Positions 53,497 to 62,181 of a DNA stretch of 64,000 bases are shown in pieces (the stretch's first letter is position 1; each line of letters opens with the position of its first letter). The stretch is from positions 1-64,000 of IMG/VR virus record IMGVR_UViG_3300021138_000019, one strand, 5' to 3'. The DNA is from a virus. Below the pieces are notes generated by a model. The model searched no databases, had not been told where the DNA came from, and saw nothing but the letters and a program-made list of their open reading frames with translations. The position numbers and the translations under genes are program-made.

Positions 53497-53518
53497 TTGT
53501 TGTAGAATAGTAAATATT

Positions 53519-53722
53519 ATGAAAACTCAAAACCCTAAACTAATTGAATTGCGTTCAAAAACTAATATTTTCCAAATTTATTGGACTTATTCTTCTTGGG
53601 ACGAAAAGGAAATTGATGGAGAAATGTTCACTCCTGTGACTAAATTTATGCCACATCCAGATAAAATTACAGAACTACACTATGTAAAAACAAGTAGTTT
53701 GGAAAGAGTTGTAGAATTTTAA
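53519..53722 (+). CDS. Hypothetical protein
   Basis: 67 aa ORF on the coding strand. Confidence 0.55.
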   Translation: MKTQNPKLIELRSKTNIFQIYWTYSSWDEKEIDGEMFTPVTKFMPHPDKITELHYVKTSSLERVVEF

Positions 53723-53733
53723 AGGAAGAAATA

Positions 53734-54243
53734 ATGCATCTAAAAATCTTAAATTGTCCTGATAGAGAATTTAAACCATTTATAAAAGATGCAGTAAATT
53801 ACTTTGCATCCGAATTAATTACTAATAAAAGAATAAGAAATAATTGTCATCTTACAATAAGATTTGATGCTAAATTAGAAAATTATGGCACTGCTTTTGT
53901 TGAAGAATGCAATAGCAAAAACCAACCAAGAGTATTCAAAATTGAATTGCATCCGGGTATTGGCGTGAGAAATATATTTTCAACATTAGCACATGAAATG
54001 GTACATGTGAAACAATATTTGAATGATGAACTAAATGAGGAAATGACCTTGTGGAAAGGCAAAAAAGTAGATTCTGACAATATGGATTACTGGATACATC
54101 CATGGGAAATCGAGGCCTCTGGTATTGAAGTGGGGTTATTATATAAATATACTGTACAGAATCAATTATGGAATATTTTTGAAGAATTCAAAGATCCTGT
54201 TACTCCTATAGTATCTATACCAATTAAGTGGAAAAAAATATAA
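53734..54243 (+). CDS. Zincin-like metallopeptidase (HExxH)
   Basis: TLAHEMVHVKQY and Y...PWEIEA. Confidence 0.7.
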   Translation: MHLKILNCPDREFKPFIKDAVNYFASELITNKRIRNNCHLTIRFDAKLENYGTAFVEECNSKNQPRVFKIELHPGIGVRNIFSTLAHEMVHVKQYLNDELNEEMTLWKGKKVDSDNMDYWIHPWEIEASGIEVGLLYKYTVQNQLWNIFEEFKDPVTPIVSIPIKWKKI

Positions 54244-54245
54244 AA

Positions 54246-54344
54246 ATGTTTACGAAACCGACATACCATACTAATTGTCGCACAGAGATTTGCGATAATG
54301 AATCATGGGCCTTGCAAAAAAGGGGTTTCTGTATAAGTTTTTAG
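54246..54344 (+). CDS. Putative attenuator leader peptide MFTKPTYHTNCRTEICDNESWALQKRGFCISF
   Basis: ATG 2 nt after the upstream TAA. 32 codons covering 19 of the 20 amino acids. The last codons form the 5' arm of an antiterminator. Confidence 0.7.
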   Translation: MFTKPTYHTNCRTEICDNESWALQKRGFCISF

Positions 54345-54369
54345 TCCAAGAAATTATACACAAACCCCT
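54321..54369 (+). promoter_or_regulatory. Antiterminator hairpin
   Basis: aggggttt-c-tgtataa-g-ttt (54321-40) pairs with aaa-ttataca-c-aaacccct (54351-69), sequestering the terminator 5' arm. Confidence 0.7.
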
Positions 54370-54397
54370 AGCGTAACACCTAGGGGTTTTTTGTTTT
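54362..54397 (+). terminator. Intrinsic terminator (attenuator) upstream of the tRNA array
   Basis: 10-bp stem aaacccctag / ctaggggttt followed by tttgtttt. Confidence 0.85.
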
Positions 54398-54406
54398 CAG
54401 ATATGT

Positions 54407-54482
54407 GTACGTGTGACCCGAAAGGCTAGGGGGCAGATTGCAAATCTGTTTTATGTAGGTTCGATTCCTATCACGTACTCCA
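54407..54482 (+). tRNA. tRNA-Cys(GCA)
   Basis: Acceptor gtacgtg/cacgtac, anticodon arm gcaga-ttGCAaa-tctgt, GTTCGA, encoded CCA. Confidence 0.92.
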
Positions 54483-54514
54483 AAATTATTTTGTTGTAAT
54501 CTTGCAACAAAGTG

Positions 54515-54543
54515 TTGACAAATGATTTTTAGTATGTTATACT
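54515..54543 (+). promoter_or_regulatory. Sigma70-type promoter within the tRNA array
   Basis: TTGACA-N17-TATACT with extended TG, preceded by inverted repeat ttgttgtaa-tc-ttgcaacaa. Confidence 0.75.
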
Positions 54544-54549
54544 AGAGTC

Positions 54550-54561
54550 TGTTCTTTAAAA
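54550..54561 (+). promoter_or_regulatory. boxA-like antitermination element
   Basis: TGTTCTTTAAAA compared with rrn boxA TGCTCTTTAACA, at the predicted transcript start. Confidence 0.5.
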
Positions 54562-54577
54562 ATTTGAAGTAGTTTAT

Positions 54578-54653
54578 GCTCGGTTCATCTAGAGGCCTAG
54601 GATAGTGCCCTTTCACGGCATTCACACCGGTTCGAATCCGGTACCGAGTACCA
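54578..54653 (+). tRNA. tRNA-Glu(TTC)
   Basis: gtgcc-ctTTCac-ggcat, GTTCGAATC, CCA. Confidence 0.93.
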
Positions 54654-54773
54654 TTTGTTTTGCTGATGTAAGCCATGGGGTAAACGTCAACCCTGAGTAA
54701 CTATATTAATAAACGGTAGTGTGGCCACCAATTCCGTTGAGGTATAGCAAATAGTGCGTCAGCAAAACAAATG
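54654..54773 (+). ncRNA. Unknown structured RNA closed by a ~19-bp stem
   Basis: catttgttttgctgatgta (54652-70) pairs with tgcgtcagcaaaacaaatg (54755-73). Internal hairpins present; no ORF. Confidence 0.6.
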
Positions 54774-54778
54774 ATTTT

Positions 54779-54855
54779 GGTCCCATAGTATAGCCTGGTT
54801 ATTACAGCGGCTTGTCACGCCGTCAACAGGGGTTCGAATCCCCTTGGGACCGCCA
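54779..54855 (+). tRNA. tRNA-Asp(GTC)
   Basis: gcggc-ttGTCac-gccgt, GTTCGAATC, GCCA end. Confidence 0.93.
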
Positions 54856-54873
54856 AAAAAGAAGATAGTATAT

Positions 54874-54952
54874 TCCCTGGAATTCGAGCATGGTGCACGG
54901 ACTTGACTGTTAATCAATGATTAGCTGGGATCGTTACCCAGACAGGGAGCCA
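54874..54952 (+). tRNA. tRNA-Asn(GTT), atypical T-loop
   Basis: ttga-ctGTTaa-tcaa, acceptor tccctg/caggga, T-loop reads ATCGTTA. Confidence 0.8.
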
Positions 54953-54957
54953 AATAA

Positions 54958-55036
54958 CTCGGTGTAGGATAGTCTGGTTCATTCCACCTGTTTTGGGAAC
55001 AGGAAATCGCAAGTTCAAATCTTGCCACCGAGACCA
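54958..55036 (+). tRNA. tRNA-Pro(TGG)
   Basis: cctgt-ttTGGga-acagg, GTTCAAATC, ACCA end. Confidence 0.92.
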
Positions 55037-55042
55037 ATTAAT

Positions 55043-55127
55043 GGATGTGCCGCCGTAATGGTATGGCAGGAGATTGTAAATCTTCCGGTTTACACCACAG
55101 TTGGTTCGATCCCAACCACATCCACCA
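55043..55127 (+). tRNA. tRNA-Tyr(GTA)
   Basis: ggaga-ttGTAaa-tcttc, long variable arm, CCA. Confidence 0.9.
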
Positions 55128-55148
55128 TTAACCTTATTAAGGATAATT

Positions 55149-55391
55149 ATGAATTACATAATTACATTTTTAGCAGTATTCATTACAGATATCTTGTATT
55201 GTTTTTTTATAAAAGCAATGAACGAAGATAAAATGTTTCTTGCAAGTATTTGGAGTTGCTTAGTAACATTGGCCGCAAGTGTAGCGGCAATCAATTATAT
55301 TGATGACCATACAATGATAATTGCATCTGTATTAGGTGCGTTTTGCGGCACTTACGTTGCAATGAAGTTGAAAAAGAAATTATTGCCCTAA
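55149..55391 (+). CDS. Small membrane protein (three hydrophobic segments)
   Basis: SD AAGGA, 80 aa, GAFCGTY motif. Its end overlaps the 5' end of tRNA-Thr. Confidence 0.65.
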   Translation: MNYIITFLAVFITDILYCFFIKAMNEDKMFLASIWSCLVTLAASVAAINYIDDHTMIIASVLGAFCGTYVAMKLKKKLLP

Positions 55392-55458
55392 TAGTATAGT
55401 GGTATTACAACGGATTTGTAATCCGTTGACGGGAGTTCGATTCTCTCTTGGGGCACCA
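55385..55458 (+). tRNA. tRNA-Thr(TGT)
   Basis: acgga-ttTGTaa-tccgt, GTTCGATTC, ACCA end. Confidence 0.92.
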
Positions 55459-55523
55459 TATAGAAACACACTCATTAAGGCATCCGGTACGAAAGTAAAT
55501 TTGGCCGAGTGTGTTTCTATATG
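55457..55523 (+). ncRNA. Perfect 17-bp stem-loop RNA attached to the tRNA-Thr 3' end
   Basis: catatagaaacacactc / gagtgtgtttctatatg, with a 33-nt loop containing tac-gaaa-gta. Confidence 0.55.
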
Positions 55524-55528
55524 TAATT

Positions 55529-55602
55529 CTCTCGCAAGTGTTCCGGTAGCACAAGGTTCTCCAAAAGCCTTGGACGGGGTTCGATTCCCTGGCGGGAGGC
55601 CA
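55529..55602 (+). tRNA. tRNA-Trp(CCA)
   Basis: aggtt-ctCCAaa-agcct, GTTCGATTC, GCCA end. Confidence 0.88.
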
Positions 55603-55603
55603 A

Positions 55604-56191
55604 TTATTCTATGAGTCCGGTAATCTGTTGAATAGCTTCAATAGCATCAGACGAATAAAAATAGTCTAATAAATTTTCAGACATAAGATTAAGAATTTCG
55701 ATTCTTCTTTCCATATTCTTTAAGGTATTTTTTAAGTTGTCAATATGGTTCTGTGTGAATTTTTGCAATATATTTTCTTTTTTCCTAGACTTGATTCGCA
55801 CTACAATCATTTCAAATTTTTTGATATCTCTCGTAACATTGCCAATATTGTTATTAACATTTTTTATAGCCTCAATAATATCACCTTTCATCATCATAAT
55901 TAAATCATCATTAATAGGATCCATTTTATTAATAAAATGCATTGTGAGTTGAGCAAGTTCATTAAGAACTTCTGCATTAATATCGTAAGTTTGATTTACT
56001 GTACCAGTGGCATCATAATGGGCACGTTTATCAGGATCACTTAGTGTCTCATACGCCATTTTAATTTTTTTAAATTTCTCTTCTTCACCTCCTTTATCTG
56101 GATGATGTATCTGAGCTAACAAACGATAAGCGTGTTTAATTTCTTCACTTGTTGCATCTGGTGAAATTCCCAGTTGTTTGTATAAATCCAT
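55604..56191 (-). CDS. J-domain (DnaJ-like) protein
   Basis: DLY..LG...A...EIK.AYR.LA...HPDK, followed by a coiled coil. Minus-strand ATAAATA at 56217-23. Confidence 0.85.
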   Translation of the reverse strand: MDLYKQLGISPDATSEEIKHAYRLLAQIHHPDKGGEEEKFKKIKMAYETLSDPDKRAHYDATGTVNQTYDINAEVLNELAQLTMHFINKMDPINDDLIMMMKGDIIEAIKNVNNNIGNVTRDIKKFEMIVVRIKSRKKENILQKFTQNHIDNLKNTLKNMERRIEILNLMSENLLDYFYSSDAIEAIQQITGLIE

Positions 56192-56245
56192 GATGTTTAA
56201 ATAAGTAGTAGTTAGATATTTATTGTTGTTAAAGGAAGATGTTTT

Positions 56246-56722
56246 ATGAGAGATTTTGATATAAAAGTAGTCAAAGATTTTATTTTGGCTCAAGGACCGG
56301 ATACAAAAGTATATCTAGGTGCCGACTCGGAACGTCTTAGAATTAATGGTGTATGGTATGCTGACTATGCACTTGCGGTTGTTGTTCACATTGATGGTTG
56401 CCATGGTTGTAAAATTTTTGGTTTTGTTGACCGTGAATTAGATTACGATCACAAAAAAAGTAAACCAGCAATGCGTTTGATGACAGAAGTATATAAAGTG
56501 TCTGAATTGTTTCAAGAAATGTCGGATGTTCTAGAAGACCGTCACGTTGAAGTACATTTAGATTTAAACAAATCGGATGAATTCGGTTCTTCTTGCGTTG
56601 TGCAACAAGCAATTGGGTACATCAAAGGTACATGTGATATTACTCCGATGGTAAAACCAGATGCACCTGCCGCAAGTTTTTGTGCCGACAGATTAAAAAG
56701 AATCTTGGCCGAACAAATATAA
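56246..56722 (+). CDS. RNase H-like YkuK/DUF458-family protein
   Basis: VYLGADS, RLMTEVY, VEVHLDLN, KPDA.AAS..AD. Confidence 0.7.
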   Translation: MRDFDIKVVKDFILAQGPDTKVYLGADSERLRINGVWYADYALAVVVHIDGCHGCKIFGFVDRELDYDHKKSKPAMRLMTEVYKVSELFQEMSDVLEDRHVEVHLDLNKSDEFGSSCVVQQAIGYIKGTCDITPMVKPDAPAASFCADRLKRILAEQI

Positions 56723-56727
56723 ATAAT

Positions 56728-56804
56728 GGAGACTATAGTGTAACGGTTTAGCACCCGACTCTGTGAAAGTCGTAGAATGGGTTCGTCTCCCATTAGTCTC
56801 CCCA
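56728..56804 (+). tRNA. tRNA-His(GTG)
   Basis: G-1:C73, cgact-ctGTGaa-agtcg, CCA. TATAAATA at 56718-25 just upstream. Confidence 0.92.
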
Positions 56805-56823
56805 AACTTTGTTAAGGAAAATT

Positions 56824-57096
56824 ATGAAAATAGGTGGTATCTATTATGATGTTATTCATAAAACAAATGAAGAACTGAATGGTAATGTTGGTCTTGCAGA
56901 TTTCAATAGACAAGAAATTAGCATTAACACAGAGCATACAATGCAAACTCAAAGGATTGCTTTAATACATGAAGTTTTGCACATTTTGGATAATACCTAT
57001 AATCTTAAGTTAACTGAAGAACAAGTAACTTTTACTGCACACGCATTAGTAAGTTTAATTGAAGATAACAAAGAGTTTTTGAAAAGTTTTTTATAA
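56824..57096 (+). CDS. Small HExxH metalloprotein
   Basis: LIHEVLH and L.EEQV. Confidence 0.55.
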   Translation: MKIGGIYYDVIHKTNEELNGNVGLADFNRQEISINTEHTMQTQRIALIHEVLHILDNTYNLKLTEEQVTFTAHALVSLIEDNKEFLKSFL

Positions 57097-57105
57097 AGGA
57101 ATATT

Positions 57106-57351
57106 ATGTACACACCCCTGCATGACAAGATTATCGTTCAACGACTTGAAAAAGTCAATCAAACTGATTCGGGTATCATACTCAAATCTTCACCAGAACC
57201 AGACAGAGCAAAAGTTATTGCTGTAGGACCTGATGTTGAAGAAGTTGCAATCGGTGAAGAGATTCTAGTAAATTGGAACGGTGCAATCAAAGTCAAAGAT
57301 GACATATACACATTAAAAGTAGAGCATGTTGTTGGTGTTTTCGAATCTTAA
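57106..57351 (+). CDS. groES: Co-chaperonin GroES-like
   Basis: PLHDKIIV, T.SGIIL, VIAVGP.V. Confidence 0.85.
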   Translation: MYTPLHDKIIVQRLEKVNQTDSGIILKSSPEPDRAKVIAVGPDVEEVAIGEEILVNWNGAIKVKDDIYTLKVEHVVGVFES

Positions 57352-57379
57352 TAAATATCAATTTAACTGTTAAAACATC

Positions 57380-57925
57380 ATGTCACATAGAGAACAACGA
57401 GATTTTATTACCAGACTCAAAGAAAAATTCCCAAATAATTTCAAAAACATTAAAATGCTTGAAATCGGTAGTCTAGATATAAATGGATCTATTAGAGATT
57501 ATTTTGAAAACTGCAACTATATTGGTTATGATGTTGGTGAAGGAAAACTCGTTGATGTTGTTTATGACGGTATCACATTCAGGGCAGAAGATATAGAATT
57601 TGATACTACCGGAAGTTGTAATTGTTTTGAGCATAATCCTAATTGGGTATCTAATTTTAAAGATATGCACAGAATATTAAAATCTGGTGGCTTGCATTTT
57701 ATATCTGTACCGACAACAGGATGCCCTGAACATGGTACGGAAAAACAAAACTCTAGTGATAGTCCTTTGACAATTGTAAAAGGTGAAGGATGGAAAGATT
57801 ATTATAAGAATCTAACGGAAGAAGACTTCAGAGAAAACTTTAATTTAGGTGAAATGTTTAGTGAATATAAATTTGAAGTAAACAATGAGGTTCACGATTT
57901 ATATTTTTTCGGTATTAAAAAATAA
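57380..57925 (+). CDS. Class I SAM-dependent methyltransferase
   Basis: LEIGSLDING, FEH.P, ILK.GG. Confidence 0.8.
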   Translation: MSHREQRDFITRLKEKFPNNFKNIKMLEIGSLDINGSIRDYFENCNYIGYDVGEGKLVDVVYDGITFRAEDIEFDTTGSCNCFEHNPNWVSNFKDMHRILKSGGLHFISVPTTGCPEHGTEKQNSSDSPLTIVKGEGWKDYYKNLTEEDFRENFNLGEMFSEYKFEVNNEVHDLYFFGIKK

Positions 57926-57999
57926 GCGGGATTAGTTAAATGGTAGAACGGGACCTTGCCAAGGTTCGGACACGAGTTCGATTCTCGTATCCCGCTCCA
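57926..57999 (+). tRNA. tRNA-Gly(GCC)
   Basis: ggacc-ttGCCaa-ggttc, acceptor gcggga/tcccgc, TCCA end. Confidence 0.92.
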
Positions 58000-58043
58000 A
58001 ATTTTCATAAAAGTTTCATAGTGAAAACGACTATATAGTATAT

Positions 58044-58117
58044 AGCGGGTTAGTAAAACAGAATTACGGAGGACTCATAATCCTCAGTTCCTGGTGCGAC
58101 TCCGGGACCCGCATCCA
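58044..58117 (+). tRNA. tRNA-Met(CAT), initiator-like
   Basis: gagga-ctCATaa-tcctc, A1:A72 mismatch, T-loop TGCGACT. Confidence 0.8.
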
Positions 58118-58145
58118 AACTACTTTAAATTTAGGTGAACAATTA

Positions 58146-59195
58146 ATGTCAAAAGTTTTGTTTCTTCTCAAGCGCAGGGAAGATTATCATAGTATAACGC
58201 ATTCAAATATCGGTTTAAGTACCGGCTTATACAATTCGGCAAGTTTCATGTATGAAATGCTGAACAATAATGGTGTGCAATCAAAATTAGTTGTATGTAT
58301 AGATAATAATTGTATTGACCGTGAAGTCAATATATATAAACCAACTCATGTAATTATTGAAGCTCTTTGGGTAACACCAACCAAGTTTGCAATACTACAA
58401 AAGTTGCATCCTTCAGTTAAGTGGATTATCAGATTACATTCTGAATTACCATTTATGGCAGGTGAAGGTATTGCTATGGATTGGATTGCCGAATATTCAA
58501 CCTATAAAAATGTTGTTATTGCATGTAATGCACCACGAATGTTACATGACATGAGGGTGTATGTAAAAGAACATTTTGGGTTTAGAATTTGTAAAATTGA
58601 AGAAAAGATTGTATATTTACCAAATTATTACCCGCAAGAATTTGATATTAAAAAATTAGATACTAAAAAAGAATTTGTTGATGTTGGTTGTTTTGGTGCT
58701 ATAAGACCGCTTAAAAATCATTTATCACAAGCACTAGGCGCATTACAATTTGCTAATCGAATAAAAAAGAAATTGAGATTTCATGTCAATGCCGGACGTA
58801 TTGAAATGAAAGGTGAGCCAATGATTAATAATCTAAAATCTTTTTTTATACAGGTTAATGATACCGGACATCAACTGATAAACCATCAATGGACTCCTAG
58901 AGATAATTTTACCGAATTGTGTTCAAAAATGGATATTGGTTTGCAGGTAAGTTTTTCGGAAACTTTTAATATTGTTGGGGCAGATTTCGTATCTCAAGGA
59001 GTACCATTTGTTGGGTCTTTAGAAATACCGTGGATGTCAAATACTTTTGCCGCAGATCCTACTGACACAAAAGATATTGCCAGAAAATTAGAATTGGCGT
59101 ATACATGGCCTCGTCTAAATACATGGTTAAATAGAAAGAGTCTCAAAAATTATACTGATGAGACCCTTACTATATGGTTAAAATATTTTAAATAA
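58146..59195 (+). CDS. Glycosyltransferase-like protein (GT-B type C-terminus)
   Basis: FGAIRPLKN and Q.SFSETFNIV.AD....G.P. Confidence 0.6.
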   Translation: MSKVLFLLKRREDYHSITHSNIGLSTGLYNSASFMYEMLNNNGVQSKLVVCIDNNCIDREVNIYKPTHVIIEALWVTPTKFAILQKLHPSVKWIIRLHSELPFMAGEGIAMDWIAEYSTYKNVVIACNAPRMLHDMRVYVKEHFGFRICKIEEKIVYLPNYYPQEFDIKKLDTKKEFVDVGCFGAIRPLKNHLSQALGALQFANRIKKKLRFHVNAGRIEMKGEPMINNLKSFFIQVNDTGHQLINHQWTPRDNFTELCSKMDIGLQVSFSETFNIVGADFVSQGVPFVGSLEIPWMSNTFAADPTDTKDIARKLELAYTWPRLNTWLNRKSLKNYTDETLTIWLKYFK

Positions 59196-59204
59196 GGAAA
59201 ACAA

Positions 59205-59396
59205 ATGTCACATCACATGGTAAAAAAACACAAATGGGTTGGTGGTGTTTTAGAATCTTCTTCACATTTTTTTGATTCTTTTGAAAGTGCTAAGGAATTT
59301 TTAAATACACAAGATGCTGATACGTTGAAAATTTTTAATGCTAATGGTGAATTAGTTCACGAATTAGTCACAACAACCAACACATCCATATCCTGA
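59205..59396 (+). CDS. Hypothetical protein
   Basis: SD AAGGA, 63 aa. Confidence 0.55.
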   Translation: MSHHMVKKHKWVGGVLESSSHFFDSFESAKEFLNTQDADTLKIFNANGELVHELVTTTNTSIS

Positions 59397-59572
59397 TAAC
59401 TTTTTTTAATTTGCTTTGATGATTAATTTTTATGAATATTCCAATAAAATTAACGCTCGATCAAATGCATCTCACAACAAAACTTTTAGAACTTTTAGAA
59501 GAAGTAGAACACGCCGGTAAATTCTTATTTTATTGCTTCGTGTTTTTTCTGGGTATAACAATTAGCGTACTA

Positions 59573-60379
59573 TTAATCCTCTTTTGGGCTTTCAAAAATA
59601 GGTTTCTTTGATTTTTCAATATACTCTAAGATCTCCCTCTTTCTCAATTCCTCTAATTTATATTGATTAGTGTGTTGAAAAAGACTGGGATATCTTTTTT
59701 GTGCATCATGTGCAATATAAGCGAAAACGCAACTCATTGAAAATATTATAACAAGTAATACACCACCAAAATACGCATCGGCTCGTAGATGTTGCATAAA
59801 GATAGCCTTTCTTCTTGCATCCGCCGCTTCCATTTTCATTTTTCTAGCGATGAGAATTTTTTCTTGTTCCCCAAGCTCCTCCATCATTTTATTCACATCA
59901 GTCCACAAAGCACCAAGTTCAGGCGGACTTTGATAAACTACTAGCTCACGCAAATCAACACTCATTTGCTGTAATTTCTTTTTCATTAAGACTCGTTGCA
60001 ACGCACGTTTACCTAAACTGGCGTCACCTTCATAAATATGAGTTTTTGCATACTTTTCTTCCTCAGCTAAAACGGTTTGGCATTTATAAAATGCGTCAAA
60101 AAATTCACCGAGCCTTTCACCAATTTCAGAATAAATATCATCAGTATCCCCACCTTTTTTGTTTAACTCAATTATTTCATTTTTCTTTTCGATTAATTGT
60201 TTTCGTTGTTCATTCGTTGCAGGTTTATCTTTATGGTGGTCGTGGAACTGCTTATCAAGATCGTCAAGAACTTCTTTTACGTTCCCTGCCGCACCTTTGA
60301 TATCTTTGTAGAGTTGACAACCTTTTTTGACAGCCGCAACAGCGGCATTCGCCATAGCGAATAATGTTATTGGATCCAT
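59573..60379 (-). CDS. Helical membrane-anchored protein of unknown function
   Basis: MDP.TL.A.A..AV..VK.GC N-terminus, coiled coil, one TM helix near the C-terminus. Minus-strand ATAAATA at 60484-90. Confidence 0.7.
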   Translation of the reverse strand: MDPITLFAMANAAVAAVKKGCQLYKDIKGAAGNVKEVLDDLDKQFHDHHKDKPATNEQRKQLIEKKNEIIELNKKGGDTDDIYSEIGERLGEFFDAFYKCQTVLAEEEKYAKTHIYEGDASLGKRALQRVLMKKKLQQMSVDLRELVVYQSPPELGALWTDVNKMMEELGEQEKILIARKMKMEAADARRKAIFMQHLRADAYFGGVLLVIIFSMSCVFAYIAHDAQKRYPSLFQHTNQYKLEELRKREILEYIEKSKKPIFESPKED

Positions 60380-60442
60380 TTAAAGAGTTATAATTACCAG
60401 ACATTAATAATCAAATTTCATGGTAAAGATAACAAGAACTGC

Positions 60443-60471
60443 TTGACAGTTCAGACGATTTCATATATAAT
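60443..60471 (+). promoter_or_regulatory. Perfect sigma70 promoter upstream of tRNA-Gly and gp43
   Basis: TTGACA-N17-TATAAT. Confidence 0.75.
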
Positions 60472-60490
60472 AGACAATCTATCTATTTAT

Positions 60491-60564
60491 GCGTGGTTAG
60501 TTTAATGGTAGAATTAGAGCCTTCCAAGCTCAAGACAAGGGTTCGATTCCCTTACCACGCTCCA
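60491..60564 (+). tRNA. tRNA-Gly(TCC)
   Basis: gagc-ctTCCaa-gctc, acceptor gcgtggt/accacgc, TCCA end. Confidence 0.92.
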
Positions 60565-60580
60565 ACATTATAAGGTTATT

Positions 60581-60895
60581 ATGAGTATACAAGTTTTGAA
60601 ATTAGTGACAGGTGAAGAAGTTCTTGGTGATATAGAAAGATTGTCACCAATATCTCATTATAAAGTTAAAAATCCGGTAGGCATCTCAATTGTTCGTGGT
60701 AAAGATGGACAACCAAACATCGGATTTTCACCGTTTCCACTACATGCGGAACAAATAAAAGATTCAACTATTGACATCCCAAGTACATCCATAGTATACT
60801 CATACACACCAGCACAAGATTTTATTGACAACTATAATCAAGTATTTGGTTCAGGTATCGTATTACCAAAACAGAAAGAAATTATTCTAGGATGA
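60581..60895 (+). CDS. Conserved Sm-like hypothetical protein upstream of gp43
   Basis: LKLVTGEEV.G and Y...FGSGIV.P. Confidence 0.7.
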   Translation: MSIQVLKLVTGEEVLGDIERLSPISHYKVKNPVGISIVRGKDGQPNIGFSPFPLHAEQIKDSTIDIPSTSIVYSYTPAQDFIDNYNQVFGSGIVLPKQKEIILG

Positions 60896-62181
60896 ACTTC
60901 TACACAAGCGTTCACGTTATCGGCAATAACGTAATGTTTCGAGGTATTAGAAATGGTAAAAGAGTTAAACAAAGAATTGAATACTCGCCATCTCTATATC
61001 TTGAAACAAAAAAAGATTCCAAATACAAAAGTCTGCAAGGTCTAAACTTAGAGCAAAGAAAATTCGAAACTATCCGTGATGCTAGAGACTTTCTAGACAA
61101 TTGGCGAGATGTTTCTAATGCGCCTAAGATATATGGTCAGGCTCGTTTCGAATATGCATATATCACAGACCATTATCCTGATCTGATTGATTATGACTTT
61201 GAACAGTTAAGAGTTGCCGTAATTGATATCGAGGTCGGTTCAGAGAATGGCTTTCCTGACCCATACGAAGCGACAGAACCCATCACAGCGATTTGTATTC
61301 AATGGGTCAATGGTAAGACTTATGTGTTTGGTTGTGGCGACTATGAAACTAAAGGTAACGAAATCTATGTGAAGTGTAAAGATGAATACGAACTTTGCAA
61401 AAAATTCGTAATGCTATGGGCTGAAGACCCGCCAGATATTCTATCCGGCTGGTACATGAAAGACTTTGATGTGCCTTATCTCGTCAATCGGTTTAGGCGT
61501 ATTGTGGGGGATGATTTCGCAAAACAATTATCCCCATGGAACATAATCAAAGAACGCAAAACTATTATTAACGGTAAACAAGTTCTTTATTATGAACTTC
61601 TTGGAGTTTCCTGTTTAGATTACATTGATTTATATAAGTGGTATGCTCCTAACGGTAAGTCGCAAGAAAATTATCGCTTAGAAACTATTGCTCAAGTTGA
61701 ATTGGGTGAAGGTAAGTTATCATATGATGAATATGATAATCTTCACACATTGTATAGGCTCGACTATCAAAAATTCATAGAGTACAACATCAAAGACGTT
61801 GGTCTTGTAATGAGACTTGAAGAGAAGTTGAAGTTACTTGAACTTGCCATTTCTTTGACATATGATACAAAATCAAATTACGATGATGTGTTTGCACAGA
61901 CTCGTATGTGGGATGCATTAACTTATTCTTACCTAAAAGAGAAAGATATCATTGTACCGCCACGTATCGTCAAAGATAAGAACATGGCATTTGAAGGTGC
62001 TTATGTAAAAGAACCGCAAGTAGGTTTCCATGAATATGTTGTGTCATTCGATTTGAATTCTCTGTATCCTCACCTTATGATGCAGTATTCCATAAGTCCT
62101 GAAAACCTTGTGGAAAGAAGTTATATTTCCGAAAGAAAACAAAAACTGATTGAGGAGTTAAAGTTGAGAAACACTAAATAA
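60892..62181 (+). CDS. gp43: DNA polymerase gp43, N-terminal half (exonuclease plus palm motif A)
   Basis: DIEV (Exo I), FDVPYL (Exo II), YNIKDV (Exo III), SFDLNSLYPH (motif A), then a stop. Confidence 0.93.
   Translation: MNFYTSVHVIGNNVMFRGIRNGKRVKQRIEYSPSLYLETKKDSKYKSLQGLNLEQRKFETIRDARDFLDNWRDVSNAPKIYGQARFEYAYITDHYPDLIDYDFEQLRVAVIDIEVGSENGFPDPYEATEPITAICIQWVNGKTYVFGCGDYETKGNEIYVKCKDEYELCKKFVMLWAEDPPDILSGWYMKDFDVPYLVNRFRRIVGDDFAKQLSPWNIIKERKTIINGKQVLYYELLGVSCLDYIDLYKWYAPNGKSQENYRLETIAQVELGEGKLSYDEYDNLHTLYRLDYQKFIEYNIKDVGLVMRLEEKLKLLELAISLTYDTKSNYDDVFAQTRMWDALTYSYLKEKDIIVPPRIVKDKNMAFEGAYVKEPQVGFHEYVVSFDLNSLYPHLMMQYSISPENLVERSYISERKQKLIEELKLRNTK

Follow-up and report, generated by a model that had tools for sequence, protein, structure and literature searches.

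Organization of the Locus

We analyzed a putative transcription attenuator that lies ahead of an array of transfer RNA (tRNA) genes in an uncultured lake phage. The stretch of DNA in question, hereafter the window, comprises 64,000 nucleotides (nt), positions 1 to 64,000 of the IMG/VR record IMGVR_UViG_3300021138_000019, which is a 74-kb contig of a T4-like phage with an estimated completeness of 44%. At this locus the gene for a WLM/SprT-like zinc metalloprotease (53734-54243; HExxH motif, weak match to Peptidase_M91) is followed directly by a short leader open reading frame (ORF), an intrinsic terminator and tRNA-Cys, with ten more tRNA genes behind tRNA-Cys in the window (Table 1). The leader ATG stands 2 nt after the protease stop codon (54241-43) and has no Shine-Dalgarno sequence, and translational coupling of the leader to that upstream stop is likely from this arrangement. 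Lake and freshwater metagenomes of several different years contain near-identical DNA, none of the listed datasets that contain it being an RNA run. Two contigs, each from a separate sample, show zero differences from the window over positions 53600-54440.

An earlier note on this DNA had described a leader of 32 codons that uses 19 of the 20 amino acids, a strong terminator ending just before tRNA-Cys, an alternative helix incompatible with that terminator, and a sigma70-type promoter further downstream. Each of these four features was recovered in our analysis, with the base pairs (bp), energies and consensus matches given in Table 1 and below.

Table 1. Features of the leader-terminator element and its surroundings, in window coordinates
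Feature	Positions	Strand	Description
TATAAATA motif	54142..54149	+	In 3' end of protease gene, 97 nt upstream of leader ATG
Leader ORF	54246..54344	+	32 codons plus TAG; 19 of 20 amino acids; 3 Cys codons
Core hairpin	54275..54298	+	8-bp stem UUGUCGCA/UGCGAUAA, 8-nt loop; fixed-length spacer to 54308 ends CAUGG
Region 2 (anti-terminator 5' arm)	54321..54336	+	From the final codons of the ORF; predicted by folding; G54331 covaries with C54359
Region 3 (anti-terminator 3' arm)	54354..54369	+	54362-69 common to terminator 5' arm
Intrinsic terminator	54362..54397	+	10-bp stem 54362-71/54380-89, 8-nt loop, U-tract to 54397; -15.0 kcal/mol
tRNA-Cys(GCA)	54407..54482	+	ARAGORN and Rfam (49 bits); 9 nt past U-tract
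Hairpin UUGUUGUAA..UUGCAACAA	54488..54512	+	Directly 5' of the -35 hexamer of the array promoter
Sigma70-type array promoter	54515..54543	+	TTGACA-17-TATACT, TG-extended; 11/12 consensus matches

A Family of Elements in Freshwater Phages

Related loci were gathered through the neighboring protease gene, and a search with the conserved core pattern added 51 contigs; a profile (nhmmer) was built from 38 aligned elements. Homologues of the element were found in 43 of the 84 loci that had been picked only by their protease gene, and all loci together gave 102 matches and 100 leaders, which comprise 59 distinct peptides in 16 clusters below 60% identity. A covariance model located exactly one copy in the window. 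In every locus with enough downstream sequence (37 of 37) a tRNA gene follows about 10 to 300 nt past the terminator. The family is made up of about 100 loci of uncultured freshwater T4-like phages, in which the element heads the tRNA array wherever the downstream sequence sufficed, and the short ORF with anti-terminator and terminator that the earlier note anticipated upstream of related tRNA clusters is present there, with compensatory changes in the pairing.

Searches of cultured-phage records with blastn and tblastn did not return the element, the only matches being to tRNA-Glu and, distantly, to the protease. An Rfam scan of positions 53500-61500 (E <= 1) gave no family for the element RNA, only the tRNAs and two chance-level matches, and neither Pfam nor PHROGs held a family for the leader peptide.

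Competing Terminator and Anti-terminator Structures

Folding of positions 54300-54405 gave, as the minimum free energy (MFE) structure, a helix of 20 bp in three segments (54321-28/54362-69, 54330-36/54354-60 and 54338-42/54348-52). Because this helix occupies 8 nt of the terminator 5' arm, the two structures are mutually exclusive, and the predicted energy of the anti-terminator duplex in the window is -21.5 kcal/mol vs. -15.0 kcal/mol for the terminator. In constrained folds the anti-terminator was the MFE structure while the transcript spanned only 54246 to a 3' end between 54368 and 54380. The terminator was obtained on masking of positions 54327-56, the footprint of a ribosome at the stop codon, and the anti-terminator when the ribosome was stalled at codon 11.

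The same competition is present throughout the family. Each of the 38 aligned elements has a duplex of -15 to -25 kcal/mol in which the 3' end of the ORF pairs with a segment overlapping 7-11 nt of the terminator 5' arm, and in all 38 this duplex is stronger than the element's own terminator (-9.6 to -17.6 kcal/mol). The window and every one of the 38 aligned relatives have the terminator itself (a stem of about 8-11 bp with a U-tract), and in the subfamily to which the window belongs (L138-L144) terminator substitutions are limited to the loop. The position of the stop codon is similarly constrained: relative to the 3' end of the predicted region-2 helix it falls at -6 to +7 nt in 38 of 38 aligned elements, with 2-23 nt separating it from region 3. 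This places it at the 3' end of region 2 or in the loop that precedes region 3, with a subset of elements having their stop about 20 nt beyond the core GGG helix, within the loop.

MAFFT and RNAalifold applied to whole elements recovered only the core hairpin, with the arms in differing registers, and we therefore relied on alignment-free duplex tests and a covariance-model alignment instead. Cognate arm pairs had a mean of -19.6 kcal/mol, compared with -15.4 kcal/mol for non-cognate pairs (none of 10,000 permutations as low) and -10.6 +/- 3.2 kcal/mol for shuffled arms. In the covariance-model alignment of 65 matches, 77.1% of cells pair vs. 71.2% in shuffles, both partners have changed in 9 of the 11 pairs, and the covariation score from this model-based alignment is 0.207 vs. 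0.116 (0 of 500 shuffles). Furthermore, within the window's subfamily we counted 13-15 substitutions in 86 unpaired positions vs. 1-2 in 60 paired positions (Fisher P 0.004-0.009), and the changes at paired positions preserve the structure, with the pair G54331-C54359 becoming A-U between the window and L143 and the G.U at 54277 becoming A-U.

These observations bear on another account of the locus, namely that an ordinary terminator shields the tRNA promoter against transcription from upstream, the alternative helix and the composition of the ORF being incidental. A terminator followed immediately by a strong promoter is indeed a common insulating layout, but a plain terminator would be weakened by an alternative helix such as this one, which is the stronger of the two in every member and covaries. 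Behind the terminator, moreover, stand promoterless tRNA-Cys or tRNA-Ser and tRNA-Cys genes, and the amino-acid completeness of the leader, described below, is non-random; plain insulation is accordingly a very improbable explanation.

Translation Signals and Composition of the Leader

All 59 distinct leaders are open for 29-44 codons. In 37 of the 38 aligned elements the start is either leaderless, with the ATG a few nt past the -10 hexamer, or placed after a Shine-Dalgarno-like motif (often GGAG); on these sequence signals, translation of the leader ORF is supported. The retention of translation signals and an open frame in every lineage also bears on whether the terminated leader transcript could itself be the product, as a trans-acting small RNA (sRNA) that might act besides attenuation in the manner of rnTrpL of Sinorhizobium. 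As a discrete RNA the transcript would measure about 150-185 nt, and it has both a stable hairpin at its 3' end and an invariant one inside; sRNAs derived from attenuators are documented (PMC6614838). A pure sRNA, however, needs neither translation signals nor an open frame; no target or seed region was identified and Rfam gave no match, and we regard this explanation as improbable.

The window leader contains 19 distinct residues, with valine missing, compared with 14.7 +/- 1.7 in random 32-residue windows of the phage's own proteins (P = 0.005 for at least 19). Near-complete sets are also found in the relatives, with all 20 amino acids in 35 of the 59 distinct leaders, 19 in 19, 18 in three and 17 in two, so that 54 of the 59 have 19-20 amino acids. 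Over the 16 cluster representatives the mean z-score for completeness was +2.5 relative to random phage-protein windows, with individual P values from below 1e-4 to 0.19. Completeness is achieved by different residues at different places, lineage by lineage, and is therefore retained while the sequence drifts. These data show that completeness of the amino-acid set is under selection.

The leaders show neither a run nor a marked surplus of codons for the amino acids of the gated genes; they have 19-20 different amino acids instead. The window leader has 3 Cys in 32 residues (P = 0.004), and these three codons ahead of tRNA-Cys are a hint, the sole one in the window, of regulatory codons. The composition of the leader as a whole points to a sensing of charged-tRNA supply. 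The earlier note had further stated that 14 of the 17 codons at positions 5-21 encode amino acids whose tRNAs lie downstream. The count is 12 of 17 (P = 0.01, for a stretch picked after the fact), tRNA-Asn not having been found by ARAGORN or Rfam anywhere in the 74-kb contig; over the entire window leader, 16 of 32 codons specify phage-tRNA amino acids against a background of 0.40 (P = 0.16). The atypical, GC-ending codons that were also remarked upon amount only to a trend in the window, where the G+C content of third codon positions is 0.375 vs. 0.24 (P = 0.06), but across the family the effect is clear: the synonymous codons of the leaders are rarer than those of phage genes, with a family mean z of -3.0 (window z = -1.4). 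This use of rare codons may come partly from the G+C-rich stems.

Amino-acid identity, as distinct from the set, is not retained in the window's subfamily. Reading the leader substitutions by hand in the frame of codons 1-22, we found that all five codons changed between the window and L139 alter the amino acid, and that between the window and L143 four changed codons alter the amino acid and two are silent; purifying selection on the amino-acid sequence was not seen in these two comparisons. Additionally, a 1-nt insertion in the A-run at 54315-20 of the window shifts the C-terminal frame, and the window leader stops 6 nt beyond the point at which its subfamily relatives end, a TAA that closes region 2. 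Tolerance of such a frameshifted C-terminus would be unexpected in a functional small protein.

We therefore consider it unlikely that the ORF is an independent gene encoding a small functional protein (29-44 residues) and that its 3'-end pairing serves messenger RNA stability or translation and not downstream regulation. Such a gene would fit the fact that the main-family unit has its own promoter and terminator with a separate promoter for the tRNA array, and at the amino-acid level one can recognize a core motif (YRT..DNxSW), joined in a subset by a C-terminal DEGWDG. The conserved residues, however, coincide with invariant hairpin nucleotides, third codon positions included, most leader changes in the subfamily alter the amino acid, the frameshift replaces the C-terminus, and there is no Pfam or PHROGs match. 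A small protein would also leave unexplained both the 19-20-amino-acid set and the covarying overlap with the terminator arm.

In a separate observation, the leaders of L005 (3589-3705), L012, L013, L017, L126 and L073 run about 8 codons past region 2 and share a conserved end, ..(V/I)DEGWDG; nowhere else in the family does the conservation look like that of a peptide as opposed to an RNA.

Conservation across the family is highest in the core hairpin and its spacer to CAUGG, and extends there to third codon positions. In 38 sequences six stem pairs are invariant or G.U-compatible, and the loop differs by multiples of 3 nt; the hairpin may serve as an RNA polymerase pause hairpin. Its conservation far exceeds what a sensor of all codons requires, which would suit a switch that senses a ligand or the nascent peptide, as in TnaC or antibiotic leaders, and whose core responds to one specific signal and not to decoding speed. 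The peptide encoded by the core nevertheless varies by lineage (TEIC, TPFIGS, TINSA, NIT) while the stem nucleotides are fixed, and no known arrest motif or riboswitch family was matched, making a specific-signal switch highly improbable.

Promoters and the Genes Behind the Terminator

No promoter-like site was found between the terminator and tRNA-Cys in the window. In the window and in L143 a promoterless tRNA-Cys lies between the terminator and the array promoter, and in L139 tRNA-Ser(GCU) and tRNA-Cys are placed likewise, so that read-through must make these tRNAs. Accordingly placed, tRNA-Cys is predicted to be the only gene that can be transcribed solely via terminator read-through, and the promoter at 54515 would drive tRNA-Glu and the remaining array independently of the switch. 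The caveat attached to the earlier note, that in view of this promoter the attenuator may gate read-through only, or mainly tRNA-Cys, was well founded; strict gating in the window applies to tRNA-Cys only.

Directly upstream of the leader, L143 and L139 have a promoter with 12 of 12 consensus matches. The window has no dedicated leader promoter because a different gene, that of the protease, abuts the leader, and leader transcription must consequently enter from upstream. The TATAAATA motif within the protease gene, which we take to be a T4-type late-promoter motif, may be its driver; the window has seven matches to the motif, each of them on the + strand, and this number does not exceed chance expectation. 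A second of these (56718-56725) lies 4 nt before tRNA-His. For main-family leaders we considered CCTATATA, found upstream of them, as a late promoter and rejected it, since its place within sigma70-like promoters is the spacer or the -10 region.

The hairpin that precedes the array promoter forms a cassette with it after the terminator across the main-family elements examined, and in L143 it stands before the leader promoter. It shows G.U-compatible changes and a variable loop length and so looks like an RNA-level hairpin; it is not a general feature of the other strong promoters of the window.

Proposed Mechanism and Points Against It

We judge it likely that the element is a ribosome-dependent transcription attenuator with an all-amino-acid leader placed before phage tRNA genes. 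In this mechanism, RNA polymerase arriving from upstream would transcribe the 32-codon leader, and an undelayed ribosome would cover the final codons and the stop (region 2) while regions 3 and 4 emerge. With region 2 covered, the terminator would fold and transcription would end 9 nt before tRNA-Cys. If instead the ribosome were delayed at any earlier codon, or if there were no translation, region 2 would pair with region 3 and thereby remove the terminator 5' arm, and the polymerase would continue into tRNA-Cys and then the array. With 19-20 amino acids sampled by the leader, read-through would rise whenever any charged tRNA ran short or translation capacity fell in general. We infer the response of read-through to ribosome position, which probably operates, from the structures and the sequence constraints. 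A further step, that the leader is a "test peptide" with which the loss of any tRNA species, for example by cleavage with a host anticodon nuclease, induces the phage tRNAs as an inducible counter-defense (tRNA-Cys only via the gate), is possible but doubtful.

Several results weigh against an attenuator of this kind. In all 36 main-family relatives the first tRNA is preceded, 22-35 nt past the terminator, by a near-consensus sigma70-type promoter (10-12 of 12 matches), and the window's equivalent promoter, with its preceding hairpin, lies behind tRNA-Cys. With a promoter after the terminator, the switch can only add transcripts to the array and cannot be its main control. The nearest relatives of the window by protease gene (L002-L004) are without the element, and the window leader, the lone exception to the start signals of the 38 aligned elements, has neither a Shine-Dalgarno sequence nor a dedicated promoter.

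The leader codons provide further points of this kind. The check proposed in the earlier note, whether they follow each phage's tRNA set, had a negative outcome: codons readable by phage tRNAs are not above ordinary genes (11 loci, P 0.19-0.95), and in the window 15 of 32 leader codons are read by the phage's own tRNAs vs. a background of 0.35 (P = 0.10). Lacking an excess of anticodon matches, the leader looks like a general decoding sensor and not a mirror of the phage tRNA set. Moreover, each amino acid occurs just once or twice where classical attenuators use runs, and sensitivity to partial starvation may thus be low.

The remaining points concern the structures. At equilibrium the full-length window RNA favors the terminator by 5.5 kcal/mol, so that the outcome of the switch would be kinetic. 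In the model-based alignment, a shift of the partner by +2 columns leaves 72.6% of cells paired, the G-run and C-run arms fitting more than one register. Finally, a trp-like 1:2 protector pairing was not above shuffles (mean z = -0.66; window z = -0.7), and without a supported 1:2 protector helix an untranslated leader should read through.

Additional Features of the tRNA Arrays

Relatives of the WLM/SprT-like protease are encoded on more than 330 viral contigs, and the gene adjoins a tRNA array in those examined. At L002 (3505-3830), as also at L003 and L004, tRNA-Cys begins about 6 nt past the protease stop with no leader between them, and these three loci have another 32-codon ORF, rich in Cys, His and Trp, between tRNA-Cys and tRNA-Glu, with promoter-like sequence upstream and a hairpin after it.

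Within the window, the motif GTTCTTTAAAAATTTG at 54551-54566, between the array promoter and the next tRNA, is kept in many relatives even where its flanks differ, and may act in the tRNA precursor as a signal for processing or as a leader signal. Metagenome contigs differ in the spacer from tRNA-Glu to tRNA-Asp (54654-54778), one of them skipping 116 nt and others having many substitutions and small indels.

Comparison with Known Systems

Leader-peptide attenuators are well known from the amino-acid operons of Escherichia coli and Salmonella (trpL, hisL, pheL and leuL, and the multivalent thrL and ilvL). In architecture the phage element agrees with these classical attenuators in four defining features. 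It shares with them a short translated leader, an intrinsic terminator and a mutually exclusive anti-terminator that draws its 5' arm from the end of the leader ORF, and the input is likewise presumed to be the position of the ribosome. It differs from them in having approximately one codon for each of 19-20 amino acids with no runs of regulatory codons, in the genes downstream, which are phage tRNA genes and not biosynthetic enzymes, in the lack of a supported 1:2 protector, and in the second strong promoter past the terminator.

T-box riboswitches (Rfam RF00230) likewise use a terminator/anti-terminator switch that reports tRNA charging. They bind one specific uncharged tRNA directly, independently of translation, and control synthetase or amino-acid genes; the Rfam scan of positions 53500-61500 (E <= 1) gave no match to the T-box model.

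The antibiotic-responsive attenuators of Bacillus subtilis vmlR (PMC9226507) and yxjB/tlrB (PMC6851288) depend on ribosome stalling, and RNA polymerase pausing helps to synchronize polymerase and ribosome (PMC9226507; PMC6851288). As in vmlR and tlrB, any stall in the leader of the phage element would favor the anti-terminator, so that the output reports impaired translation (PMC9226507; PMC6851288). The vmlR and tlrB leaders, however, respond to ribosomes that have bound a drug, in particular peptide contexts, and their output is resistance proteins, whereas the output of the phage element would be tRNA.

The nearest published case of a stress-induced tRNA array is the trn operon of Anabaena sp. 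PCC 7120, a 26-gene array reported to be induced by translational stress (PMC8421152) via the repressor TrcR (PMC10272220), and in which expression of extra tRNA genes goes up when translation is impaired. This operon differs in being cellular and plasmid-borne and in using a DNA-binding repressor; the abstracts of the two reports describe no leader peptide or terminator switch (PMC8421152; PMC10272220).

Our literature search returned no description of leader-peptide attenuation of phage tRNA genes. Such genes are usually viewed either as constitutive helpers with codon usage or as substitutes for tRNAs that host defenses have cleaved. If the attenuator reading is true, phages monitor the decoding machinery of the host and adjust their tRNA supply, and the element, compact at about 150 nt, could be a natural sensor of translation capacity. 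Leader-peptide attenuation would then extend from the "one amino acid, one pathway" of the classical operons to a general 20-amino-acid sensor.

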